Part shown: positions 41,320 to 53,826 of the stretch, piece after piece
How positions within the stretch are numbered: the first letter of the stretch is position 1
Layout: each line of letters starts with the position of its first letter
NCBI GenBank assembly: GCA_963808565.1
Contig: CAWEGM010000014.1
Span: 92,918 to 156,917, forward strand
Direction: 5' to 3'
From: an uncultured Solirubrobacterales bacterium
Lineage (GTDB): Bacteria; Actinomycetota; Thermoleophilia; Solirubrobacterales; 70-9
DNA: 64,000 nucleotides
Program-made: the position numbers and the translations under genes
The notes under the pieces: model-generated
Told to the model about the DNA's origin: nothing
The model's input: the letters and a program-made list of their open reading frames with translations, nothing else
Databases searched by the model: none

Positions 41320-41816
41320 GCAAACACCTCCCTCAATTTCGCTAGGCCCTCGTGGACGCTGCGGCGGGCGGCAGCCTGCGAGCAGTCCAGCGTCTGGGCG
41401 ATTCCGGCATACGACATGTCCGTAGCGAAGCGGAGAACCACGGCGCTCCGCTGCTTCGGCGGGAGGCCGCTGACGGCCGTCCACAGCTCGGGCTCGCCTC
41501 CCGCCACTGCCTCCTCCGGCCGGGAGTTCGTGCCGGGCTCTCCGCCGGCGACCTCCTCGGCGCTCCCGGCGGGAGCTGCCCGCCTGCCCCGGGCCCTGTG
41601 GTGGTCGATCGCCTTGCGGTGCGCGATCGTGAGCAGCCATGAGCGCAGGTTGCGCGCGTGCTCGAGCCTGGGGTAGGCGCGCAGCGCCGCGATGAACGTC
41701 TCCTGGAAGGCGTCCTCGGCGTCGTGAGGGCCGACGGTCGCCACGAGAAAGCCGAGCACGTCCGAGCCGTGCTCGTCCAGCAGTTCCTGAAATGGAGGAA
41801 GAGTCGCATCGGGCAT
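41316..41816 (-). CDS. ECF-type RNA polymerase sigma-70 family factor
   Basis: Region 2 DAEDAFQETFIAALRAYPRLEHARNLRSWLLTIAHRKAIDHHR. Region 4 LPPKQRSAVVLRFATDMSYAGIAQTLDCSQAAARRSVHEGLAKLRE. Confidence 0.85.
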   Translation of the reverse strand: MPDATLPPFQELLDEHGSDVLGFLVATVGPHDAEDAFQETFIAALRAYPRLEHARNLRSWLLTIAHRKAIDHHRARGRRAAPAGSAEEVAGGEPGTNSRPEEAVAGGEPELWTAVSGLPPKQRSAVVLRFATDMSYAGIAQTLDCSQAAARRSVHEGLAKLREVFA

Positions 41817-41828
41817 TCGCCAATGAAA

Positions 41829-41855
41829 CGTCTCACACCGCGGTTTCGTGAGACG
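41829..41855. promoter_or_regulatory. perfect 8-bp inverted repeat in the 48-bp sigma/nadC divergent spacer
   Basis: CGTCTCAC-accgcggtttc-GTGAGACG. Function unknown (operator or leader hairpin). Confidence 0.3.
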
Positions 41856-41864
41856 CTGACCGCG

Positions 41865-42707
41865 ATGGAGATCGACTCCAAAACGCGCGATCTCGTCGCT
41901 CGGGCCCTCGCCGAGGACGTCGGCGGGCGGGACGTCACCGCCGAGGCGGTCGTCCCGGCCGACGCGAAGTCGACCGCGACGATCACCCAGAAATCCCCCG
42001 GGGTGCTGTTTGGGCTGGAGGTCGCCGCGGAGGTCTTCCGCCAGGCCGGGGCGGGGGAGCCCGAGGTACTCGGCGCGGAGCGGGAGTGGCGCGACGACGT
42101 CCCGGTCGCGGTGGCGCGAGTCGCGGGTCCCGCCCGTGCGCTCCTGTCGGCCGAGCGAACGGCGCTCAACTTCCTCGGTCATCTCTCCGGGGTGGCGACG
42201 CTGACCGCGAGATTCGTCGGCCGAGTGAAGCTCACCGGCGCGCGCATCCTCGACACGCGGAAGACGACCCCCGGCCTGCGCGCGCTCGAGAAGGCGGCAG
42301 TCGCCGCCGGTGGCGGGGTGAACCACCGCATGGGCCTCTACGACGGAATCCTGATCAAGGAGAACCATGCAGCGATCGCGGGCGGGGTGGGGGAGGCGGT
42401 CCGGCGAGCGCAAGATGCCCGTCCCGGGATGACGATCGAGGCAGAGTGCCGCGACCTCCGGGACGTGCGCGAGGCGACCGAGGCCGGCGCGGATCGTCTG
42501 CTGCTGGACAACATGGACCCGCTCGAGCTTCGAGAGGCGGTCAGCGCGGCCTCCGAGTCTCGCGATCGCCTCGAGCTCGAGGCGTCCGGGGGTATCACTC
42601 TGGCGAACGTCGCCGAGATCGCCGAGACCGGGGTGGACTACATCTCCGTCGGCGCCCTCACCCATTCGGCTCCCGCCCTCGACCTCAGCATGGTTATCGA
42701 GATATAG
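41865..42707 (+). CDS. nadC: nicotinate-nucleotide pyrophosphorylase (quinolinate phosphoribosyltransferase)
   Basis: ALAEDVGGRDVT, ERTALNFLGHLSGVAT, ILDTRKTTPGLRALEKAAVAAGGG, HRMGLYDGILIKENH, LLLDNM, ASGGITL. Alternative start is ATG 41823. Confidence 0.9.
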   Translation: MEIDSKTRDLVARALAEDVGGRDVTAEAVVPADAKSTATITQKSPGVLFGLEVAAEVFRQAGAGEPEVLGAEREWRDDVPVAVARVAGPARALLSAERTALNFLGHLSGVATLTARFVGRVKLTGARILDTRKTTPGLRALEKAAVAAGGGVNHRMGLYDGILIKENHAAIAGGVGEAVRRAQDARPGMTIEAECRDLRDVREATEAGADRLLLDNMDPLELREAVSAASESRDRLELEASGGITLANVAEIAETGVDYISVGALTHSAPALDLSMVIEI

Positions 42708-42822
42708 GCTCGCGAGGATGCCGCCCACCGCCGGACTGCGCCGCAAGCGGAGGCGATCGTCAGGGAGCACATGGACTCGGTGAACCGCCACGAGTTCGGG
42801 CGAGCACTGGTCCGGCGGGTGC

Positions 42823-43596
42823 TCAGGCGCCGACCGCGCGCTTGTACCGGTTGACCGCGAGCCACGAGAAGACGGCGATCAGGCCGCACGTCCAGAGGAC
42901 CGCGCCCCAGATGCTGTTGCCGGCCGGATCGCCGATCCATAGTGCACGCATCGCGTCAACCGCGACCGTGAACGGGTTCACCTCGGCGAATTGCTGGAGC
43001 CCGTCGGGGAGGGTGTCGATCGGGACGAAGGCGGAGGAGACGAAGGTGAGCGGGAAGATCACCATGAAGCCGATTGCCTGTGCCGCCTCGGCCGAGGACG
43101 AGACGAGGGCGAAGAAGGCGAAGAGCCAGGAGAAGGCATAGCCGAAGAGCAGCATCAGCCCGATTCCGGCGACGATCTCGAGCGGGCTGGCGTCGAAGGT
43201 GAAGCCGATGATCAGCGCCACGGTGATCATCACCACGATCGAGAGCAGATTGGTGGCGACGTCTGCGAGCGTCCGGCCAGCCAGCACTGCGCTGCGCGAC
43301 ATCGGCAGCGAGCGGAAGCGGTCGATCAGCCCCTTCTTGAGATCGTCGGAGAGGCCGATGGCGGTCACAAAGCCGCCGAAGAACATCGTCTGCACGATCA
43401 GCCCGGGGATCAGGAACTCGGTGTAGGAGTGACCGGGAGTCTCGATCGCGCCGCCGAATACGTAGTTGAACAGCAGCACGAACATAATCGGCTGCAGCGT
43501 GAACGAGATCAGCAGGTCCGGAGCCCGCGGGATCCGCTTCAGGTTGCGGACCGCGAGGACAAGGCCGTCGGAGACGGCGTAGGCGGCGGCGTTCAT
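42823..43596 (-). CDS. ABC-2 type transporter permease (DrrB-like)
   Basis: Six TM pattern, MNAAAYAVSDGLVLAVRNLKRIPR...DRFRSLPMSRSAVLAGR. The ATG overlaps the ATPase stop (ATGA 43593-96). Confidence 0.8.
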   Translation of the reverse strand: MNAAAYAVSDGLVLAVRNLKRIPRAPDLLISFTLQPIMFVLLFNYVFGGAIETPGHSYTEFLIPGLIVQTMFFGGFVTAIGLSDDLKKGLIDRFRSLPMSRSAVLAGRTLADVATNLLSIVVMITVALIIGFTFDASPLEIVAGIGLMLLFGYAFSWLFAFFALVSSSAEAAQAIGFMVIFPLTFVSSAFVPIDTLPDGLQQFAEVNPFTVAVDAMRALWIGDPAGNSIWGAVLWTCGLIAVFSWLAVNRYKRAVGA

Positions 43597-44588
43597 CCGG
43601 GCCGCTCCTCGGTCGCCACCACTTCGCGCTCGCCATCCTCGCTCTCCGGCTCGGCCGCGTGGCCGGTGAGGACGATGAAGACGTCGTCGAGGGTCGGCCG
43701 CCGCACGGCGATGTCGTCGATCGCCACTCCGGCGTTGTCGAGTCGGCGCACCGCGTCCGCGATTGCGCCCTGATGACCTGCGATCTGCATCCGCACCAGC
43801 CCGTCGACGGACTCGGGGCGCTCCAGACACATCGCGGCCAGCGCAGCCACGGCCTCCTCGGCCTGCTGGGGCCGCTCGAGCCGGACCTCGAGCCCCTCGC
43901 CGCCGACGCGATCCTTGAGCTCGTCTGAGGTTCCCTCGGCGATCACCTTGCCGTGGTCGACCACGCAGATCCGGTCGGCGAGCCGGTCTGCCTCGTCGAG
44001 GTACTGGGTGGTGAGGAGGACCGTGGCGCCCTCGGCCACCCGTTCCTCGATCGTGTTCCAGAGACCGAGCCTGCTCAGCGGGTCGAGCCCGGTGGTGGGC
44101 TCGTCGAGGAAGACGACAGGCGGACGCGCCACCAGCGCCGCCGCCAGGTCGAGCCGCCTGCGCATCCCGCCCGAGTAGGTGCGGACGAGCCGGTCGCCCG
44201 CATCTGTGAGGTCGAAGGTCTCGAGCAGCTCCGCCGCCCGCTGGCGGGCGACCGTCGCGCCGAGGTGGTACAGCCGCCCGACCATCTCCAGGTTCTCGTG
44301 TCCGGTCAGGTTCTCGTCGACCGCCGCATACTGGCCGGCTAGCCCGATCTGGGAGCGAAGGGCGGCCGCGTCCGCGACCACGTCGAGCCCGGCAACCCGG
44401 GCGCTCCCGGCATCCGGTCGAAGCAGGGTGGTGAGGATGCGCACCGCGGTCGTCTTGCCGGCGCCGTTCGGACCGAGCAACCCGAGCACGCTGCCTCTCG
44501 GGGCGCTGAGGTCGATCCCATCCAGCGCCCGAACCTTGCCGAAGGACTTCTCGAGCCCCTCCGCCTCGATCGCCGCCGGCTCCGCCAT
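43593..44588 (-). CDS. ABC transporter ATP-binding protein (DrrA/daunorubicin-resistance type)
   Basis: GLLGPNGAGKTT (Walker A), YSGGMRRRLDLAAAL (signature), VVFLDEPTTGLD (Walker B). Confidence 0.9.
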   Translation of the reverse strand: MAEPAAIEAEGLEKSFGKVRALDGIDLSAPRGSVLGLLGPNGAGKTTAVRILTTLLRPDAGSARVAGLDVVADAAALRSQIGLAGQYAAVDENLTGHENLEMVGRLYHLGATVARQRAAELLETFDLTDAGDRLVRTYSGGMRRRLDLAAALVARPPVVFLDEPTTGLDPLSRLGLWNTIEERVAEGATVLLTTQYLDEADRLADRICVVDHGKVIAEGTSDELKDRVGGEGLEVRLERPQQAEEAVAALAAMCLERPESVDGLVRMQIAGHQGAIADAVRRLDNAGVAIDDIAVRRPTLDDVFIVLTGHAAEPESEDGEREVVATEERPG

Positions 44589-44678
44589 GCCCCTCAAGCT
44601 AGCGCGATTCGGCCGCTGTCCTGGACGAGACCCATGGACTCAGGCTACGAGCGATCTAGGCCAGGATCTGTCCTCAAA

Positions 44679-45553
44679 TCACTTGAGCAATCGCGACAGG
44701 CGACGGTCCTTCAGAACTCGCCCGTCGGTCTGCTCCTCGGGGCAGTAGTTCATCTGGTGTTCCGCGAAGAACACCGCCTCGATCGTCGTCCCGCAGCGTG
44801 GACAGGGCTCGCCCTCGCGGCGGTGGACCTTCAGCGGCATCGGCATCTTGTCCGGGATCGCCTCCCCGACCACCTCCTCGTAGTGGTCGATGGCGTCACC
44901 CAGCACGTGCAGCGCCTCGTGCACCCGCTTGATCTCCTCGCCCCGGAGCTCGGCGCCCTTCTTGAACGGGGAGAGCTTCGCCTCCCAGAGGATCTCGTCG
45001 ACCCAGGAGCGGCCGATTCCGGCGATCACGCGTTGATCTCGGAGGAGGGGATGGAGGTGCCTGGGCTCGAGGATCCTCCCCGTGAGCTCCTCCAGCGGCC
45101 GGCGCGGGCCAGGCGTCCGGGCCGAGCGTGGCGACCATCTCCTCCTTCGTCCACCGCGTCGCGGGCCAGCAGCTTCGCCCAGGCCGACTGCTTCGTACCG
45201 AACTCCCGCAGGCGGAGCTCACGGCCGTCGGCGAGCCGGACGAGGATCCGCGAGCGGCGGTCTCGCAGCGACGCTCGCTTCTCGAACAGCTGCAGGCGAC
45301 CGGCCGACATCAGGTGGACCAGCAGGCTGAGCCTGCGGTCCGGCGGGACGCGGTCGCCGGTGACGAACCCGACCTCGAGCATCTTGCCGCGCCGATTCAC
45401 TCCGGCGACCCGCATTCCGACGAGCTCGTCCAGGGAGGGCGAGAAGGTCTTCAGCGTCGCGACGCCGGGCGCGAGGGCGGACTCGACCTCTGCGCCCTCG
45501 AGCGCGGTGCTCAACCGGCGCGCGGTGATCTCGACTTCCGGAAGCTCGGGCAC
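44679..45553 (-). pseudogene. Fpg/Nei-family DNA glycosylase, one frame switch about 45030-45110
   Basis: MPELPEVEITARRL N-terminus (ORF 45026..45553). H2TH and zinc finger IAGIGRSWVDEILWEAKLSP...CPRCGTTIE in ORF 44679..45029. Confidence 0.75.
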
Positions 45554-45673
45554 GGGCTCAAGGGTAGGCCGCGCTAACCTTTGGTCAGTTCATTCGCTCG
45601 TCTCGAGGGTCCAGACTCATACGGTCCATAGGGCGCCGGGAGAGCGAACATCCAAAGTAAGGAGCGGCCCGCC

Positions 45674-46702
45674 GTGCTGGAGCTTCCTACCGTCAACGAG
45701 CTTCCCGCCAAGCTGAGCGAGGACGAGATCTCGCGGCTGAGCGACGAGGTGCGCGCGCTTGCCGCGGAGCGCAACGCCGTCATCCTGGCGCACAACTACC
45801 AGCTTCCCGAGCTGCAGGACGTGGCCGCCTTCGTCGGAGATTCGCTCGGCCTCTCGCGTGAGGCCGCAAAGGCGGACGCCGACGTGATCGAGTTCTGCGG
45901 CGTCCACTTCATGGCCGAGACCGCGTCGATCCTCTCACCGGAGAAGACCGTCCTGATCGCCGATCTCGGCGCGGGCTGCTCGCTCTCGGACTCGATCAAC
46001 GCGGACCAGCTTCGGGCCTGGAAGGCCGAGCATCCCGGCGCACTCGTCGTCATGTACGTCAACACCTCGGCCGAGGTGAAGGCGGAGACCGACTACTGCT
46101 GCACCTCGGGCAATGCCGTCCAGGTGGTCGAGCACATCTGGCGCGAGCACGGCGAGGGGACGGAGATCCTGTTCGGCCCGGACATGTGGCTGGGCGCGTT
46201 CGTCGAGCGCGAGACCGGGATCAAGGACGATCCCGCGCGTCGCTCCCGCTTCCACATCTGGGACGGCGAATGCCACGTTCACGCGGGAATTCGGCCTGAC
46301 GACATCCGAACGGTTCGCGAAGAGCATCCCGACGCGGAGTTCCTGATTCATCCGGAGTGCGGCTGCGCCACCCAGGCGATGGAGTACGTCGCCGCGGGCG
46401 ACATCGAGGCCGATGGCGTCCAGATGCTCTCGACGGGGGGGATGCTCAACTACATGCAGCAGCATCCCGATGGCGAGTACATCGTCGCCACCGAGAACGG
46501 GATGCTCTATCCGCTCCAGCAGGCCGCGCCGGGGGCGAAGCTGATCGAGGCGAACCGGATGGCCTTCTGCAAGTACATGAAGATGATCACCCTCCCGAAG
46601 GTCCGCGACTCGCTCCGCGACTTCAAATACGAGGTGAAGGTCCCGGAGGACATCGCCGAGCGCGCGAGGCTGCCGATCGAGCGCATGGTCGCGATCGGCT
46701 AG
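45674..46702 (+). CDS. nadA: quinolinate synthase
   Basis: 342-aa intact ORF: ILAHNYQLPELQDVA, VHFMAETA, GCSLSDS, YVNTSAEVKA, CTSGNA, HPECG. RBS TAAGGAG upstream of GTG 45674. Confidence 0.93.
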   Translation: MLELPTVNELPAKLSEDEISRLSDEVRALAAERNAVILAHNYQLPELQDVAAFVGDSLGLSREAAKADADVIEFCGVHFMAETASILSPEKTVLIADLGAGCSLSDSINADQLRAWKAEHPGALVVMYVNTSAEVKAETDYCCTSGNAVQVVEHIWREHGEGTEILFGPDMWLGAFVERETGIKDDPARRSRFHIWDGECHVHAGIRPDDIRTVREEHPDAEFLIHPECGCATQAMEYVAAGDIEADGVQMLSTGGMLNYMQQHPDGEYIVATENGMLYPLQQAAPGAKLIEANRMAFCKYMKMITLPKVRDSLRDFKYEVKVPEDIAERARLPIERMVAIG

Positions 46703-46860: not shown

Positions 46861-47811
46861 ATGTTCGAGATCTTCTTGCGGGTCGGCCTTGGAATCGTGC
46901 TCGCGGGCGCCGCGCTCGCGAAGCTTGCGTCACCGCGCGCGAGCGTCGCCGCGATGGCGGGATACGGCTTCCCCGAGGGCCCGGCACGCCGGATCGCCTG
47001 GGCGGCGCTGATCGCCATGGAGCTCGGCCTCGGGGTCGCCGTCGCGCTCGGTTCCGATGCCGCCGCCTACGCCGCGGCCGCGTTGATGGCCCTGTTCGCC
47101 GCGATCACCGTTGCGGCGCTGCTCCAGGGCCGCGCGGGAGCCCCGTGCGCCTGCTTCGGGCCCCGGTCGACGGTCTCAATGGTTTCGGTGCTGCGCAACC
47201 TGGCGCTTGCCGCGGCCTTCGCGGTCGTGCCTTCCGCGGGAGACGCCTCGGTCACCACGGAAGGCTGGCTCGCGATCGGAATCGGCGTCGCGCTGGCGGC
47301 ATCCGCGGGGCTCACGGTCGCGGTACTCGCCCTCGCCCGCGAGGTCGGGATGCTCCGGCTCCAGCTGGGCACCCAGGGGGCGCTGGAGATCGCGGGGGAG
47401 GGCCCCGAGATCGGCTCCCGTTCCGAGTCGCTCGCCTCCAGGATTCCGCTCGAGCCCGGCCGCTCCGGGTCCCATCAAACGCTTGGGCTTGCGGTGTTCA
47501 CCTCGGAGGGCTGCCATCTCTGCCAGACGCTCGCTCCTGCGGTCGAGAGCATCGCGAATGACCCCCGGGTCGCGGTGGCGAGCTTCGACGAGGTCGCGGA
47601 CGCCGAGGTCTGGCGCGGCCTCGGCGTGCCCGGCAGCCCGTTCGCCGTCGCCCTCGACGGTGCCGGGACGGTTCTCGCCAAGGGCACCTTCAACAGCCTC
47701 GCGCAGCTGGAGAGTGTTCTCGCGACTGCGGAGCGCCGGAGGGCGGAAGGTATCCCGGTCGCCGACGGTTGGAGCGAGGAGCGACCGGGGGGACTGCCCG
47801 TCGGTGCCTGA
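46861..47811 (+). CDS. MauE/DoxX-like membrane domain fused to MauD-like thioredoxin-fold domain
   Basis: N-terminus: 4 TM with GAPCACFGP...VLRNLALAAAF (MauE-family C-x-CFG signature as I recall it). C-terminus: LAVFTSEGCHLCQTLAPAVESI (CxxC thioredoxin-like). Confidence 0.65.
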   Translation: MFEIFLRVGLGIVLAGAALAKLASPRASVAAMAGYGFPEGPARRIAWAALIAMELGLGVAVALGSDAAAYAAAALMALFAAITVAALLQGRAGAPCACFGPRSTVSMVSVLRNLALAAAFAVVPSAGDASVTTEGWLAIGIGVALAASAGLTVAVLALAREVGMLRLQLGTQGALEIAGEGPEIGSRSESLASRIPLEPGRSGSHQTLGLAVFTSEGCHLCQTLAPAVESIANDPRVAVASFDEVADAEVWRGLGVPGSPFAVALDGAGTVLAKGTFNSLAQLESVLATAERRRAEGIPVADGWSEERPGGLPVGA

Positions 47812-48379
47812 CCATCTCGACGGGGCAATCGACTCGCTGGCGCGCAATACGTCGCGCCGCGGCTTTCTCGCGCGCGTGAGCGGTGCGCTGATGGCGCTCA
47901 CCGCGGCTCGGACCGTAGGCAGCCTGGTCGAGCCGGGCGACTCCGACGCCTTCCACTTCTGCGGGCACATCTTCACCACCGGCTCGTGTCCTCATCCGAA
48001 CGGGCTGCCGCGGATCGACTCGCGCGGCTTTCCGCTGCGCGCCGAGGACGGACATCCCGTCGACGACATCGGCCGCCCGGTGAACGAGGCCGGTCTGCCC
48101 CTCGACGACGACAGCCAGGTCCTGCGGGATCCCGACGGCCGACCGATACCACCGGCCCCCCGCACCCGGGTCTGCGACCGGGTCGAGGACATCTACGGGA
48201 TCCGGACGTCGATCGACGGTTCCTGGTACCGCTGCTGCGGGGGCAAGGTCCGGAAACTGGTCGACTGCTGCTCTCGCAACCGGACGCGGATCAACGGCGA
48301 CGCGGCGCTCACCGGCTACTGCTTCGGCGGTCGGAAGGTCTATTGCGTCATGTACTACGACACGAGGGTTCCGTGCTGA
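47804..48379 (+). CDS. Tat-signal, Cys-rich secreted protein resembling methylamine/aralkylamine dehydrogenase light chain (MauA-like)
   Basis: GTG 47804 overlaps the upstream stop by 8 nt. TSRRGFLARVSGALMALTAA Tat signal. The mature part has 10 Cys and 1 Trp. FHFCGHIFTTGSC, SWYRCCGGK, VDCCS, YCFGG and YCVMY line up by eye with CDYWRHCSIDGxxC, YRDCCG and WCFG of MauA. Confidence 0.5.
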   Translation: MPDHLDGAIDSLARNTSRRGFLARVSGALMALTAARTVGSLVEPGDSDAFHFCGHIFTTGSCPHPNGLPRIDSRGFPLRAEDGHPVDDIGRPVNEAGLPLDDDSQVLRDPDGRPIPPAPRTRVCDRVEDIYGIRTSIDGSWYRCCGGKVRKLVDCCSRNRTRINGDAALTGYCFGGRKVYCVMYYDTRVPC

Positions 48380-49863
48380 TGTCGCTGGGCCCCCTGGAGA
48401 TCGCGCTCGCCGCGGCCGCGCTCCTGATCGGCGCGACGGGGACGTTCTCCCCCTGCGGCCTCTCGATGATCGAGACGATCGGCCCGACCGGCCATACCGG
48501 CGGGAGGCGCACGGCGATCGCGGCGTGCGCCACCTTCCTTCCCGGGGCGGTCCTCGGTGGCCTTCTCACCTTCGGCTCCCTCGCGCTGGTCGGCGAGGGC
48601 CTGCACGACGCGGGGAGGGGCGCCTACATCGTGGCCGCCGCGATTGCGGCGCTCGCCGCCGCCCTGGAGATCCGCGGCACCCCGATCGTGCCGCAGATCC
48701 GCAGGCAGCTCCCGGAGCACTGGCGGCGGGTGATGCCGATGCCGGTCGCGGCGATGCTCTACGGGGTTCTGCTCGGGATCGGGTTCACCACCTTCGTCCT
48801 CTCCTTCGGCGTCTGGGCACTGGCCGGCGTCAGCCTTGCCCTCGGCGACCCGGGCCTCGGTCTCCTGATCGGGGCGGCGTTCGGAATCGGGCGGGCGATC
48901 CCGATCGTCTCGCTCGCACCGGCGGCCGGCGGACCGTTCGGGGTCAGGGCAACGGAGCTGATGTGCGAGCGGCCCGGCGTCTACCTCGGGCTGAGGCGAG
49001 GGGATGCGGCCGCGCTGCTCGTTGCCGCCCTCGCGCTGATCGTCGTCCCCGGCGACGCGGGCGCGCGCGGCGAGGTGTCCGCGCCGCAGGCGACGGATCC
49101 CGCCGCGACGATCGACGGGCTCGTCTACCAGCGCCTCGACGGGCAGGGAGTCCTCCGGCGCGGGGGGTCCGAGGTCGGGCTTTCCGGATCCAACCCGACG
49201 ATCGGTGGCCGCTTCGTCGCGGTCCTCAGCGAGGGACGGGTCCAGCTGCTGGACCGCAGCACGCTGGCCCAGATCGCAACGGTCGAGGCTCCGGGGGCCG
49301 ACGCGATCGCGGTCTCGGATCAGTGGCTCGTCTACAGGGCGCCGCTGGGAAGCGGCGGGGACGGGATGTTCTACCGGCACATCGGAGATCCCTCGGCCCC
49401 AGGGCCGATCGCACCCGTCGCCGCCGTCGGCGGCTCCGGCCAGGTCAGCCCGCCCAGCCTCGACGGCAGCAACCTCGTATTCGGGATCGCGACGCCGTCC
49501 GGAAGCAGGATCGTCCAGCGGATCGTCGGGACTCATACGCATCGTGCACTCGTCCGGTCCGGGCGACTCCTTCTCTTCGACCCCGCGGTCACCGGCCGCA
49601 CGTTCACCTATGTCCGAACGGATGCCCGCCGCAGCCGCCTGATGATCCGCAAGGTGCGGCGGCGCGGCCCCGGCAGAGTCCTGTTCACGGTGCGCCGCCG
49701 GACGGGGATCCTCTGGAGTACCGCCCTGATACCCGGCCTTGCCTACGTGACCGTGATGAAGCCGAGCTCATCGGGCCGCGACGCGACGATCGTCCAGGTC
49801 GATCGCAAGGGCAAGCGGCTTCGCACGCACGCGCCGCGCGGCGGCGGCAACCACAGGTTCTAG
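48379..49863 (+). CDS. DsbD/CcdA-like (MauF-like?) polytopic membrane domain fused to a beta-strand-rich extracytoplasmic domain
   Basis: ATG 48379 overlaps the upstream TGA (TGATG). TM1 has GTFSPCGLSM (SPC motif of thiol-disulfide transporters). About 7 TM, then about 270 aa with repeated strand motifs (GLVYQR, RFVAVL, QWLVYR, NLVFGI, TFTYVR). Confidence 0.5.
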   Translation: MSLGPLEIALAAAALLIGATGTFSPCGLSMIETIGPTGHTGGRRTAIAACATFLPGAVLGGLLTFGSLALVGEGLHDAGRGAYIVAAAIAALAAALEIRGTPIVPQIRRQLPEHWRRVMPMPVAAMLYGVLLGIGFTTFVLSFGVWALAGVSLALGDPGLGLLIGAAFGIGRAIPIVSLAPAAGGPFGVRATELMCERPGVYLGLRRGDAAALLVAALALIVVPGDAGARGEVSAPQATDPAATIDGLVYQRLDGQGVLRRGGSEVGLSGSNPTIGGRFVAVLSEGRVQLLDRSTLAQIATVEAPGADAIAVSDQWLVYRAPLGSGGDGMFYRHIGDPSAPGPIAPVAAVGGSGQVSPPSLDGSNLVFGIATPSGSRIVQRIVGTHTHRALVRSGRLLLFDPAVTGRTFTYVRTDARRSRLMIRKVRRRGPGRVLFTVRRRTGILWSTALIPGLAYVTVMKPSSSGRDATIVQVDRKGKRLRTHAPRGGGNHRF

Positions 49864-50001: not shown

Positions 50002-50700
50002 CTAGCTCAGCCGGACCCGACCAGCACGGCGGTGACCTGAGGACCCTGTGAATGCCACATCGGACGACAGCCTCGCTGCATGCCAGGGCGAACGTATGCG
50101 CCCCGGCGCGGAATCGGATCGGTCACGACCATGGTCGAGAACCCATTCGGCGTACTGAGGCGCATTGGCCGATAGTGATGCGATCGCGTACTGATTGCCA
50201 ACGTGCACCGATCCGCCGGAGTTCACGCCGTCGACCCGGAACAGGCAGTCCCCCTGTGTCTGTGCGTTGTTGAACGCAATCTGACCGGCCCTGCCGATCA
50301 ACAGCACGCGACCCTCGTGTGGCAGAGTCATCTCCAGGCTCGCGCAGACGACGAGCGTCGCGCTTGAGGGATCGCATGCCGGGCCGCCGGGGTTGACAGA
50401 GCGCGCCGTCACGATGTTCGCCAGCGTCTGTCCGCCCACGGCACCAGCGTTCGTCGCGTTCGTCGCGTTCGTCGCGTTCGTCGCGTTCGTCGCGTTCGTC
50501 GCGTTCGCAACCGACAACCCCGGAGCCAGCTTGTTCACCTGGTTCTTGGCGATGTTCTTGACCTGCTTCTTCTCCTGCTTGTTGAGCACGCTCTTGATCG
50601 CGGTCGGAGCGGCCATCGCCGTCCCCGCGAGCGCGATGATCAGTGCCACCCCAGCGACGGTCATCGCTGGCGAGGGCATGCGTCCCTTCAGTCTCCTCAT
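50002..50700 (-). CDS. secreted protein with (Asn-Ala-Thr)n repeat; probable frame switch near 50155
   Basis: RBS AAGGGGAG then ATG 50700. MRRLKGRMPSPAMTVAGVALIIALAGTAMA signal, Lys-rich helix, VANATNATNATNATNATNATNAG, then a Cys-containing beta-rich domain. An alternative frame (ORF 50007..50201) has better GC3 at the 3' end. Confidence 0.65.
   Translation of the reverse strand: MRRLKGRMPSPAMTVAGVALIIALAGTAMAAPTAIKSVLNKQEKKQVKNIAKNQVNKLAPGLSVANATNATNATNATNATNATNAGAVGGQTLANIVTARSVNPGGPACDPSSATLVVCASLEMTLPHEGRVLLIGRAGQIAFNNAQTQGDCLFRVDGVNSGGSVHVGNQYAIASLSANAPQYAEWVLDHGRDRSDSAPGRIRSPWHAARLSSDVAFTGSSGHRRAGRVRLS
50447..50508 (-). repeat. perfect 9-bp tandem repeat gcgttcgtc, about 6.9 copies
   Basis: Six full units at 50447-50500 plus a partial unit. 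In frame, encoding NAT repeats on the minus strand. Confidence 0.95.
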
Positions 50701-51062
50701 CGGTAACTCCCCTTCTCGGTTGTTTGGCCACACGTCGGACGGAGGAGCGGAGCCGCGGTCCCCATGATCGACCCCACCGTGTCCCTAGCGCGATTCGCGC
50801 CAAGCCTATACCGAGAACGGTCCCCGGTACCCGTCGCTATTCCGCCAACGCGGCTGCCACCCGCTCTGCGGCGATCTCGTCGGACTGCGGCAGCAGGTGG
50901 GCGTAGGTCGAGGGCTCCGTCGCCGAGACGGCGGCGTCGTCCCGCCCCGGCTGTCGAGCTCTCCCTGGCGAGGACCTCGAGCGTCCTCATCTCGGCATCT
51001 TTCCCCTGCACCGACGGACAAACAGCGATCTCCCCTACTGGCCGCTGCCCTCCGCGTTCTAG

Positions 51063-51078: not shown

Positions 51079-51748
51079 GTGGGGTAAGCGCCCGGAGCGG
51101 GGGATCGGCGTAGCCGACCGCCCGGTAGAACGTCGCGCTCGGCTTCGCGAGGAGCCAGCGCCCGCCCTTGGGCCGGAGGTAGATCACGTCCTCCTCGATC
51201 GAGGGCTCTTGGCGGTCGCGGAAGCGGTGGACGACGGTCGCTGTCACCCGGGCGCCGACCCCCTCGACGGAGACCGCCGTGACCTCGACGATGCGGGTCC
51301 GCCTCCAGGCGGGCCCGCCGGCAGCCGGTCGGCTTCCGAGCGAGGCGCCGACCGAGCCCACGCAGCCGCCGCGGCGCTTCGGCAGCTCCGAGAGCTGCAG
51401 CGCGCCCGGTGCGAAGAACCCGCATGCGGCCCCCGCGTCGCGGTTGTTGAGGGCGTCGACGTACGAGCTGACCACCGCCGCGACCGCCGCCGAGTCGACC
51501 TCTGAGAGTTCACCGGTCTCTGGTCCCGCGGCGGCAGCCTCGGGACTCGCCTCACCGGCGGGCCCATCCTCGTCCTCTTCGGCGTGCTCGTGTGCCGCGT
51601 CTGGGGGCTCGGGCTCCGGGTGGGCAGTAGCAGTGGTCGAGAGGGTCGTGTTCGCGGCCACGTCCGCATCGTCGTCCGAGCCGCCGCAGGCGGGCGCGAT
51701 CAGGGCCGCGCAGCCGAGGATCGCCGCCGTCAGAGGTCCCGCTCTCAC
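51074..51748 (-). CDS. lipoprotein, hypothetical (NTF2-like C-terminal domain suspected)
   Basis: MRAGPLTAAILGCAALIAPACGG lipobox, an acidic His-rich linker, then SSYVDALNNRDAGAACGFFAPG. No firm family. Confidence 0.55.
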   Translation of the reverse strand: MRAGPLTAAILGCAALIAPACGGSDDDADVAANTTLSTTATAHPEPEPPDAAHEHAEEDEDGPAGEASPEAAAAGPETGELSEVDSAAVAAVVSSYVDALNNRDAGAACGFFAPGALQLSELPKRRGGCVGSVGASLGSRPAAGGPAWRRTRIVEVTAVSVEGVGARVTATVVHRFRDRQEPSIEEDVIYLRPKGGRWLLAKPSATFYRAVGYADPPLRALTPP

Positions 51749-51889
51749 CCGGCCAGGATATGGACGTCCGGTTTCCGTTCCTCGCTCCCTTACGTTCCGG
51801 GCCGGTGCCCCTCGCTGCTACCCTCGCCGCCCGGTCTTGAGTCCGCGACCCGAGGCCGCAGCCCCGACCCCCCGGCCCGAAGGCGCGAG

Positions 51890-52807
51890 ATGGCGCATCT
51901 GAAGGCAGTCCCCGACCCGAAGCCCGAGCCTGAGCGCGTTCCCGGCGGGAAGCCGTCGATCGCCGCGCTCGAGCGCTACGGGACGGTGCTTCGCATCCAC
52001 TGCGTCCGAATGCTCGCGGTCGCGAAGTCGGGACACCTCGGCAGCTCGCTCTCGGCCGCAGACGTCGTCGCGGCCCTGTACTTCCGCGTGCTGCGGCATG
52101 ACCCGTCCGATCCGTCAAGGCCCGAGCGGGACCGGTTCGTGCTCTCGAAGGGTCATGCGGCGCCGATCCAATACGCCGCGCTGGCTCAGCACGGCTACTT
52201 CCCGGCGGACGAGCTGATGGGACTCCGCCAGATCGACTCGCATCTCCAGGGGCATCCCGACATGAACCGCACCCCAGGAATCGAGGTGTCGACCGGGTCG
52301 CTCGGGCAGGGGCTCTCGATGAGCGTCGGGATCTGCCTTGCGCTGGGGCTCGACGGGCTTGCCGAGACCGCGCACGTCTTCACGCTGATGTCCGACGGCG
52401 ACTGCCAGGAGGGCGAGAGCTGGGAGGGGGCGATGGCGGCTGCGCACTACGGGCTCCCCAACATCACCGCGATCGTCGACTACAACCACCTCCAGACCGA
52501 CGGCACGACGGAGGAGGTCATGGACACCGGCGACGTTCGCGCCAAGTTCGAGTCCTTCGGCTGGGATGCGGTCGAGATCGACGGACACGACATGCCGGCG
52601 ATCGTGGAGGCGCTCGAGCGCAGCCGAACTCTGGGGGCCCCGGCCGCCGTCATCTGCCAGACGAAGAAGGGCCGTGGCGTCTCCTTCATGGAGGACCGCT
52701 TCGGCTTCGATGGCAAGCCCCCCAGCCAGGAGCGGGCCGAGCAGGCGCTCGATCAGCTGGAGGCGCGCTACCGGGAGCAGACCGCGGCCCTGGAGGCCGA
52801 CCGCTGA
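51890..52807 (+). CDS. transketolase, N-terminal subunit (split form)
   Basis: AKSGHLGSSLSAADV, DRFVLSKGHAAPIQYA, GSLGQGLSMSVG, LMSDGDCQEGESWEA, VDYNHLQTDG. Confidence 0.9.
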   Translation: MAHLKAVPDPKPEPERVPGGKPSIAALERYGTVLRIHCVRMLAVAKSGHLGSSLSAADVVAALYFRVLRHDPSDPSRPERDRFVLSKGHAAPIQYAALAQHGYFPADELMGLRQIDSHLQGHPDMNRTPGIEVSTGSLGQGLSMSVGICLALGLDGLAETAHVFTLMSDGDCQEGESWEGAMAAAHYGLPNITAIVDYNHLQTDGTTEEVMDTGDVRAKFESFGWDAVEIDGHDMPAIVEALERSRTLGAPAAVICQTKKGRGVSFMEDRFGFDGKPPSQERAEQALDQLEARYREQTAALEADR

Positions 52808-53826
52808 TGACGGGGGACCTGCTCGCCGCGGCCCGGCCTCAGACCGAGCCGATCGCGACCCGGCAGGCCTACGGCGACGCGCTCGCTGACCTGGGCGAGA
52901 GCTATCCGGACGTCGTCGCCCTCGACGCCGACCTCGCGGTCTCCACCCAGTCGATGAAGTTCGGGAAGCGGTTCCCGGAGCGGTTCTTCAACGTTGGCTC
53001 GGCGGAGGCGAACATGATGTCGATGTCGTGCGGCCTCGCGGTGACCGGCAAGGTCCCGTACGCGTCGACCTTCGCGATCTTCGCCGCCGGGCGCGCCTAT
53101 GACCAGGTACGGCTCGGCATCGCCCACAACGAGCTGAAGGTCCGGATCGGCGCCTCCCACGGCGGCGTCTCGCTGGGCGAGGACGGTGCCTCCCACCAGA
53201 TGATCGAGGACATCGCCCTGATGCGGGCGATGCCGAACATGCAGGTCGTCGTCCCCGCGGACTACAACCAGGCCTACACCGCGGTGATCGAGTCATACGA
53301 GCGCTTCGACGGCCCGATGTACATGCGCTTCGGCCGCCCGAAGACGCCGATCGTCTACGACGGGATTCCCGAGACGCTCGGGACCGGGGTGGACGTGCTC
53401 CGCTCCGGCGAGGACATCTCCATCTTCGTCTGCGGCCACATGCTCTGGCGTGCACTGGAAGCGGCAGCGGTCCTCGAGCATGAGGATGGCGTCGAGGCGG
53501 AGGTCGTAAACGTCTCGATCATCAAGCCGATCGACTCGCAGGCGGTGCTGCGATCGCTCGCGAAGACGGGCGTCGCGGTCACCGCCGAGGAGCACCGCGT
53601 CGTCGGCGGCCTCGGCGACGCCATCCGGCAGGTCGCCGCCGAGCAGCACCCCGTTCCGATCTTCGCGCTGGGGATGCAGGACGAGTTCGGCGTCTCGGGC
53701 ACCGCCGAGGCCTGCATGGAGCATTTCGGCCTGACCGCGAGCGGGATCGCCGACCTCGCCCGCGCGGCTCTGCTCAAGAAGCCGATCGTGCAGCATCCGC
53801 CGATCAACGGCGGCCCCTGGACGTAG
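52807..53826 (+). CDS. transketolase, C-terminal subunit (split form)
   Basis: ATG overlaps the upstream TGA (TGATG). FFNVGSAEANMMSMSCGLA, FAIFAAGRAYDQVR, GASHGGVSLGEDGASHQMIEDIALMRAMPNM. Confidence 0.9.
   Translation: MTGDLLAAARPQTEPIATRQAYGDALADLGESYPDVVALDADLAVSTQSMKFGKRFPERFFNVGSAEANMMSMSCGLAVTGKVPYASTFAIFAAGRAYDQVRLGIAHNELKVRIGASHGGVSLGEDGASHQMIEDIALMRAMPNMQVVVPADYNQAYTAVIESYERFDGPMYMRFGRPKTPIVYDGIPETLGTGVDVLRSGEDISIFVCGHMLWRALEAAAVLEHEDGVEAEVVNVSIIKPIDSQAVLRSLAKTGVAVTAEEHRVVGGLGDAIRQVAAEQHPVPIFALGMQDEFGVSGTAEACMEHFGLTASGIADLARAALLKKPIVQHPPINGGPWT

Follow-up and report, generated by a model that had tools for sequence, protein, structure and literature searches.

What is the product of a short, cysteine-rich open reading frame (ORF) in an uncultured Solirubrobacterales bacterium, and could it be the light chain of a methylamine dehydrogenase (MADH)? 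The question is raised by positions 47804-48379 of a 64,000-nucleotide stretch of contig CAWEGM010000014.1 (assembly GCA_963808565.1), which we will henceforth refer to as the window. The ORF, here called gene 2, is the middle member of a three-gene cassette, preceded by a predicted MauE-MauD fusion (gene 1) and followed by a gene combining a MauF-like domain with a beta-propeller (gene 3; see Table 1). An original prediction, made from the DNA letters, had described the product as MauA-like (i.e., akin to the MADH light chain) and had argued that it could not form the canonical tryptophan tryptophylquinone (TTQ) cofactor. The ORF itself, with one Trp, ten Cys and a twin-arginine leader, proved to be as described.

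The explanation that we favour, and to which we give about an even chance, is that gene 2 encodes the small subunit or client of a Thermoleophilia-specific cassette that draws on the half of the mau system concerned with ‘small-subunit maturation’, and that no TTQ is involved. MauE, MauD, MauF, the twin-arginine translocation (Tat) leader and the propeller are known parts, which are here assembled around a new client. The gene 2 family, the family of its partner gene 3 and the cassette as a whole are unannotated, and a literature search found no description of any of the three.

Gene order and mau-like helpers of the cassette

The reading frames of the three genes overlap (the start of gene 2 overlaps the stop of gene 1 by 8 nt, while its stop overlaps the ATG of gene 3 as TGATG), and the genes thus look translationally coupled. 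Their order, [MauE-MauD]-[small protein]-[MauF-propeller], corresponds to that of mauF-B-E-D-A in Paracoccus denitrificans when the latter is read cyclically; the mau cluster of this species was compared together with three more (gene order was matched against loci L082-L086). Apart from genes lost at contig ends, the cassette was intact and in the same order in 80/80 genome loci. Across these loci, gene 2 was the best conserved of the three, with 62-91% identity, compared with 49-79% for gene 1 and 38-84% for gene 3.

Table 1 Features of the cassette, in window coordinates
Feature	Position	Strand	Description	Remark
Gene 1	46861-47811	+	316 aa; MauE-like membrane domain (CAC-FG), one transmembrane segment and MauD-like thioredoxin-fold domain (CHLC)	
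Gene 2	47804-48379	+	191 aa; Tat leader, ten Cys, single Trp; unannotated family	
Gene 2 leader	47804-47908	+	residues 1-35; conserved n-region, TSRRGFL (47849-47869), h-region, likely T-A-A cleavage	
Gene 2 CxH-x6-CxH motif	47960-47995	+	C53-G-H55-x6-C62-P-H64	pattern in 197/197 unique sequences
Gene 2 Pro/Asp-rich segment	48008-48163	+	residues 69-120 (52 residues); tandem repeats ending PPAPRT	
Gene 2 C-terminal Cys-rich core	48164-48376	+	residues 121-191; helix and three-stranded sheet	AlphaFold2 model
Gene 3	48379-49863	+	494 aa; MauF-like membrane domain and beta-propeller	
Gene 3 N-terminal domain	48379-49059	+	residues 1-227; MauF-like, polytopic membrane	
Gene 3 C-terminal domain	49096-49818	+	about residues 240-480; beta-propeller of roughly six blades	

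Gene 1 is predicted to be a disulfide-forming module. Its membrane domain matched the Pfam MauE model PF07291 with E 3.4e-17 (63.4 bits, cut-off 27), and the C-x-C-F-G motif was found in 77/77 orthologues (PCACFG or PCGCFG in 76 and DCGCFG in one). In the thioredoxin domain of the orthologues we found a CxxC match, the dominant form among the variants tabulated. The best NCBIfam match of gene 1 was TIGR02661 MauD (E 1e-11; 44.6 bits, below the cut-off of 188.6), and P. denitrificans MauD aligned by tblastn at positions 47299-47721 with 30% over 167 aa (E 9e-12), anchor segment included. In a recent preprint (bioRxiv 10.64898/2026.03.05.709764), the CXC-FG active site is shown to be required for the DsbB-like activity of MauE, which experimentally substitutes for DsbB (i.e., complements dsbB), and fusions to thioredoxin are put at 8.2% of MauE entries. 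These fusions share with gene 1 the fold family, the CXC-FG motif and the fused CXXC thioredoxin domain; gene 1, unlike them, sits in an operon with one Cys-rich client and a MauF-propeller, and such a fusion locked together with a particular client points to a dedicated rather than a generalist system. No such client is described in the sections of the preprint consulted, and a count of terms in its text returned no mention of MauF.

Gene 3 had no match in either Pfam or NCBIfam. MauF itself has no Pfam model, which explains why the whole gene 3 family (1381 clusters at 90% identity, with one member, P0391, 100% identical to the window protein) is unannotated. Direct comparison with P. denitrificans MauF gave a BLASTP E of 0.001 and a tblastn E of 1.2e-6, while HMM-HMM (hidden Markov model) alignment with hhalign gave probabilities of 96.7%, 97.4% (E 1.4e-11) and, with 71 orthologues, 98.7% (E 2.8e-16, 204 columns). 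Alignment with MauF covers residues 7-220 of gene 3 (60-271 of MauF), and the two share the patterns T[FW]SPCG[LY]S, PQxRxQxPxxxR, LYGxxLG and GRxxP; in the orthologues scanned, the gene 3 motifs TFSPCGLS and PQIRRQLPEHWRR occurred in 70/73 and 67/73, respectively. Judged from these alignments, gene 3 is homologous to MauF in its N-terminal domain. Gene 3 differs from MauF in having a C-terminal propeller of about 260 residues and in lacking the N-terminal extension of MauF (~55 residues). In the AlphaFold2 model of gene 3 (mean predicted local distance difference test score, pLDDT, of 79.4) the propeller comprised 23 strands, block means being about 79-95 for residues 250-460, and Foldseek matched it to the propellers of prolyl-oligopeptidase, WIPI/Atg18, TolB and BamB (E about 1e-6). 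The distribution of Arg and Lys among the loops favours a topology with both termini out, which would place the propeller outside the membrane.

Other components of the mau system were sought by tblastn in the 64-kb window and in 81 related loci, and neither MauG, MauB (PF06433), amicyanin nor MauJ/M/N was matched there. Specifically, with P. denitrificans MauG as query no match in the window scored better than E 0.8, and the 81 loci contained none at E <= 1e-3, these regions being the extent of the search. At a Pfam-annotated syntenic locus (L001) no CCP_MauG domain was found, and the other missing mau genes were likewise not seen there. In the Sphingomonas sp. CJ20 locus (L086, 5676-8537) the order is mauB-E-D-A, with no unannotated gene of MauF size before mauB and no MauG domain within the 16 kb shown, indicating that MauF and MauG are not always adjacent even for bona fide light chains of the PF02975 family.

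Leader and mature chain of the gene 2 protein compared with MauA

For comparison with MauA we used the P. denitrificans protein (identical to PDB 2BBK chain L) and an alignment of 34 MauA sequences, while the gene 2 family was represented by a profile of 121 aligned members. Full-profile hhalign gave a probability of 96% (E 4e-9) over gene 2 residues 3-34 and MauA residues 9-40, i.e., over the leader only. With the leaders alone the probability was 97.8% (E 1e-12), and with the n-region without the twin-arginine core it was 47%. An HMM of the MauA leader ranked gene 2 first among 706 window ORFs (E 2.9e-5), the next scoring 0.067 and another Tat-like ORF 0.15. MauA and AauA further resemble gene 2 in being small proteins rich in Cys that are exported or periplasmic and bear a long, similar Tat-type leader, and in the position of their genes, which come immediately after mauE and mauD and are accompanied by a MauF-type protein and a beta-propeller. 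They differ in having 12 Cys and the two TTQ Trp, as opposed to 10 Cys and one conserved Trp in gene 2, which in turn has a 52-residue repeat arm and the CxH-x6-CxH motif, both absent from 2BBK chain L. Gene 2 comes from Actinomycetota (Thermoleophilia), whereas the named MauA sources in this comparison are Pseudomonadota.

A number of observations weigh against the reading that we favour. At E <= 1, none of the 121 family members, the window protein included, matched PF02975 (Me-amine-dh_L), a model against which P. denitrificans MauA scores 2e-53. Comparison of the mature domains of the family and MauA by hhalign gave a probability of 2.4%, and that of their C-terminal halves 0.4% locally and nothing globally. 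Foldseek of the gene 2 model against the PDB returned no hit at E <= 0.001 and no chain of MADH or aromatic amine dehydrogenase (AADH) among the best 50, bearing in mind that small, irregular disulfide folds are hard to detect in this way. Homology of the mature domain to MauA thus cannot be shown. Moreover, most of the leader score reflects the generic Tat consensus. Turning to gene 3, MADH heavy chains were not among the best 50 fold matches of its propeller, alignment of the propeller with MauB alignments of two depths gave hhalign probabilities of 1.7% and 0.8%, and its topology comes from a positive-inside estimate only. The preprint on MauE recasts it as a generalist oxidase, meaning that the presence of MauE alone does not imply an MADH-like client. 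As background on the helpers, mau mutant studies of the 1990s (Chistoserdov; van der Palen) reportedly found MauF, MauE and MauD to be necessary specifically for the MADH small subunit.

Further searches with the mature chain agreed with these results. Pfam and NCBIfam yielded nothing meaningful for the gene 2 protein, and in a search of the window with an HMM of the mature MauA domain, gene 2 was not among the six best matches (all with E >= 0.07). Against all PDB sequences, phmmer and the family profile returned no MADH or AADH chain, and only nanobody matches or noise at E > 0.3. BLASTP matched gene 2 to 2BBK chain L with E 0.014 in a register that is not collinear, and the weak Foldseek matches were mostly NTF2/SnoaL-like (non-significant, with TM-scores of about 0.1). 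Sequence and fold similarity of the mature domain to MauA or AauA was therefore undetectable, and the label ‘MauA-like’ holds for the leader and the gene context of gene 2, not for the mature protein. Another small, Cys-rich subunit, QhpC (the gamma subunit of quinohemoprotein amine dehydrogenase, with a cysteine tryptophylquinone cofactor and thioethers), is heavily cross-linked and has a cofactor that draws on a single Trp. No amine dehydrogenase chain, and hence no QhpC, came up when the PDB was searched with the gene 2 sequence and with the family profile, and according to the Pfam annotation of the syntenic locus L001 no domain of the radical-SAM protein QhpD, the flavoprotein QhpG or the protease QhpE is found there.

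The TTQ pair consists of W57 and W108 of the mature P. denitrificans light chain, and W114 and W165 (precursor numbering) are among the three invariant Trp of the MauA alignment. TTQ requires both Trp and MauG (PMC11951088). The sole Trp of gene 2 is W141 (TGG, 48224-48226), and the mature part contains a single Trp in 160/197 unique family sequences. Gene 2 therefore cannot make TTQ, as the original prediction had argued: a single Trp is conserved, and neither the window nor the 81 loci yielded a match to MauG. In the profile comparison that it had called for, only the leader aligned. Conservation in orthologues, also proposed there as a check, was found: across the 197 unique sequences W141, Y172 and the ten Cys hardly vary, with exactly 10 Cys in 190, WxRCC in 196 and GYC in all 197. 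Tyr172 (48317-48319) adjoins Cys173 within GYCFGG; in the family this motif reads GYC[FY]x[GN]R, meaning that the ‘FG’ of YCFGG varies.

Two further details of the earlier description did not hold up in the same way. A Tyr had been placed by eye at the position of the second TTQ Trp (YRCCGG equated with YRDCCG, and YCFG with WCFG). Among local pairwise alignments of the C-terminal halves this register does come out on top, with W108 falling on Tyr172; its score of 30 is at chance level, given a mean of 28.8 for shuffled sequences (z = 0.2, p = 0.38), and the substitution is thus not established. An alternative register, SIDGSWYRCCGG against SIDGNICDCSGG (SIDG...CCGG), was marginal (hhalign P = 0.02; pairwise z = 3.1, p = 0.015) and is not relied on. 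The Pro/Asp-rich segment, described as an insertion of about 60 residues, is present with a length of 52; calling it an insertion relative to MauA presupposes an alignment with MauA that does not exist, and that part of the description is not established.

A proposed maturation route and its alternatives

If gene 2 is the client of mau-type helpers, its maturation could proceed as follows. The precursor, which carries a long twin-arginine leader similar to that of MauA, would be exported by the Tat pathway. Outside the membrane, gene 1 would convert the ten Cys of the protein into up to five disulfides, acting through a DsbB-like MauE part (CXC) and a DsbA-like MauD thioredoxin part (CXXC); the MauF-like domain of gene 3 would assist, as reported for MauF and MauA. 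The helpers are homologous to their mau counterparts; the oxidation chemistry and the number of disulfides are inferred. That MauE and MauD are needed for the MADH small subunit is also stated in the summary of the MauE preprint (bioRxiv 10.64898/2026.03.05.709764). The folded protein, predicted to comprise an arm of beta-hairpin repeats and a compact, Cys-rich core, would then dock on the extracytoplasmic propeller fused to the MauF domain. This docking is suggested by the E-D-A-F-B gene order, the translational coupling and the co-conservation of the genes, and the gene 2 protein is probably a partner of the membrane-tethered propeller. The outcome would be a membrane-tethered heavy propeller with a Cys-rich light chain, by analogy with MADH. 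Any activity of such a complex would have to rest on W141, Y172-C173 and CxH-x6-CxH rather than on TTQ.

How far the relationship with MADH extends can be read in several other ways. It is improbable, in our assessment, that gene 2 encodes a true, catalytic, extremely diverged MauA homologue with the propeller as its heavy chain. Its cofactor would derive from Tyr172-Cys173 and/or Trp141 (e.g., a Cys-Tyr or Cys-Trp cross-link or a Tyr quinone) and would form autocatalytically, perhaps with a metal at CxH-x6-CxH and with MauG unneeded. Cofactors of the Cys-Tyr, lysine tyrosylquinone (LTQ) and topaquinone (TPQ) types do form autocatalytically with a bound metal (PMC11951088), and little or no variation is seen in W141, Y172, C173 and the Cys2His2 motif, in a cassette that keeps the mau order and a MauA-like leader; the marginal local similarity mentioned above would also agree with this idea. 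On the other hand, the mature part has no significant sequence or fold similarity to any quinoprotein subunit, the operon lacks a cofactor-forming enzyme of any known type, be it MauG or a QhpD/QhpG-like or LodB-like protein, no gene for an electron acceptor (amicyanin or cytochrome) is adjacent, and neighbouring Tyr and Cys are also expected from a purely structural disulfide core. Taken a step further, the cassette could represent a new class of membrane-tethered, MADH-like enzymes in Actinomycetota, with a new, MauG-free cofactor (a Tyr172/Cys173/Trp141 cross-link or quinone, possibly formed autocatalytically where the Cys2His2 motif binds a metal) and the MauF-propeller as heavy chain, a proposal that we regard as a long shot. 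The opposite view, that there is no relationship with MADH at all, is also unlikely. Gene 1 would then be a general DsbB/DsbA system of oxidative folding, gene 2 a co-transcribed disulfide-knot protein of the cell surface or secretome with a structural, adhesive or binding role, and gene 3 an unrelated, anchored propeller. This would suit a MauE that complements dsbB and mostly occurs without MauA (present in only 10.2% of MauE-bearing species), a mature gene 2 domain without detectable MauA homology, a repeat arm that resembles a binding module and a setting among housekeeping genes (nadA, nadC, fpg, transketolase). It would leave unexplained why a fused MauF homologue, otherwise known from mau clusters, lies next door, why the thioredoxin domain is closest to MauD and the leader matches that of MauA, and why three genes in the cyclic order of mau are inseparable in 80/80 loci.

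A metal-binding role concerns the motif C53-x-H55-x6-C62-x-H64, which may be a Cys2His2 metal site or the first disulfide loop, as far as its residues suggest. The protein could be a Tat-exported metalloprotein binding Zn, Cu or a small Fe-S centre there, as the redox or metal-handling partner of the flanking membrane proteins. This is compatible with the favoured reading, and we hold it to be doubtful. Loading of the metal in the cytoplasm would explain export by the Tat pathway. The family conserves the twin-arginine leader, the motif is found in every unique sequence (and a divergent relative, P0125, retains a nearby His in CPGPH), and confidence within the mature model is lowest in the motif loop (residues 56-58 have pLDDT <50), as expected of a site that requires its ligand. 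By contrast, no metal-site family was matched beyond weak Pfam zinc-finger noise (E 0.015, in 7/121 members), the spacing fits neither Rieske nor any other motif tested, MauA has a Tat-type leader without a preloaded metal, and C53 and C62 could simply form a disulfide. Rieske boxes have the form CxH ... CxxH, about 15 or more residues apart, and a Rieske [2Fe-2S] site was accordingly rejected for gene 2, with its CxH-x6-CxH spacing and no Rieske match in Pfam. A haem c site was likewise rejected, as the protein contains no CXXCH and the spacing around CPH is wrong.

The original prediction had also raised the possibility of a decayed enzyme. Gene 2 does lack both TTQ Trp, and the usual partner genes of MADH were unmatched; its frame is nonetheless intact in the compared sequences, it overlaps coupled frames, its relatives form 2393 clusters at 90% identity and, at 62-91% identity over the 80 loci with dozens of invariant residues, it is the most constrained gene of its cassette. 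This conservation refutes a non-functional remnant of an MADH light chain, for which we see next to no chance, and indicates that gene 2 is a functional, strongly constrained protein rather than a decayed MauA.

The reading of gene 2 as a client of mau-type helpers bears on both quinoprotein and oxidative-folding research. MauE, MauD and MauF have so far been studied almost only as helpers of one client, the TTQ light chain, and here all three are kept together around a different, unannotated, Cys-rich client and a fused propeller. The cassette would thus offer a second natural client for working out what MauF and MauD do, and one that can be tested for a metal site or for a protein-derived cofactor formed independently of MauG, while giving a name and a context to a large ‘hypothetical protein’ family (2393 clusters) and its unannotated partner (1381 clusters). 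Were gene 2 purely structural, the value would be more modest, namely an operon dedicated to oxidative folding in a soil lineage that has been little studied.

Anatomy, family and genomic setting of gene 2

Gene 2 runs from a GTG start at 47804 to a TGA stop at 48377-48379 (191 codons). The twin-arginine motif TSRRGFLARV occupies residues 16-25, with likely cleavage after LTAA35. The ten Cys lie at positions 53, 62, 124, 144, 145, 155, 156, 173, 181 and 191 and make up 6.4% of the mature chain, compared with 0.2-2.3% in neighbouring genes. An AlphaFold2 model of the protein had a mean pLDDT of 76.5 and a predicted TM-score of 0.65, with block means of 80-96 over residues 61-191. Its most confident part was the Pro/Asp-rich segment (pLDDT 94-96), modelled with short, paired beta-bridges. 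The segment consists of six tandem units of 7-8 residues with the pattern D-x-x-G-x-P-[VLI], five of which were found by a pattern scan (residues 72, 87, 94, 101 and 109) and the sixth, AEDGHPV (81-87), by eye; G75, G83, D87 and G90 within it are invariant. On the evidence of the model, the segment is an integral repeat arm and not a loose linker. Among the relatives, P0107 has 21 extra residues that form three additional repeat units, and the Pfam repeat DUF3659 matched weakly in four family members. The C-terminal core, which bears C124, W141, CC144/145, CC155/156, Y172-C173, C181 and C191, was modelled as a helix (123-131) and three strands (136-145, 148-157 and 178-190) with block-mean pLDDT of 80-91.

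The number of clusters given above for relatives of gene 2 comes from a search of 5.8 billion proteins. Among the 120 clusters listed, none carried a Pfam domain and all were either unnamed or named ‘hypothetical’, save for one labelled by its twin-arginine signal; their sources were Solirubrobacterales/Thermoleophilia metagenome bins. When representatives at 50% identity were searched exhaustively, only 246 matches were obtained. Many of the apparently distant ones were frameshifted translations of the GC-rich gene 2, and some were apparent fusions with gene 1 or gene 3 (P0129, P0140, P0147, P0162, P0170, P0240, P0243, P0246 and P0264). Counts of distant relatives from this library therefore overstate the true diversity, and these sequences provide no bridge to MauA; the family is thus populous but narrow. 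At the level of species (one genome per species), relatives were found in 509 of 185,579 genomes, and the best 80 of these 509 were all Thermoleophilia-type bins (Solirubrobacterales, Thermoleophilaceae and Gaiellaceae).

Scans of the three-gene operon for promoters and terminators found none. Upstream of the cassette lie nadC, an ABC transporter, fpg and nadA (41658-46702), and downstream is a split transketolase (51584-53826). The same neighbourhood is found on a 2-Mb Solirubrobacterales contig (L001), and with its housekeeping synteny conserved, the cassette looks like part of the core genome rather than a mobile island. Between the cassette and the transketolase, positions 50447-50507 contain a perfect 9-nt tandem repeat, GCGTTCGTC, in 6.8 copies, which encodes an (Asn-Ala-Thr)n run in a minus-strand ORF (50002-50733) whose product is predicted to be membrane-anchored or secreted.

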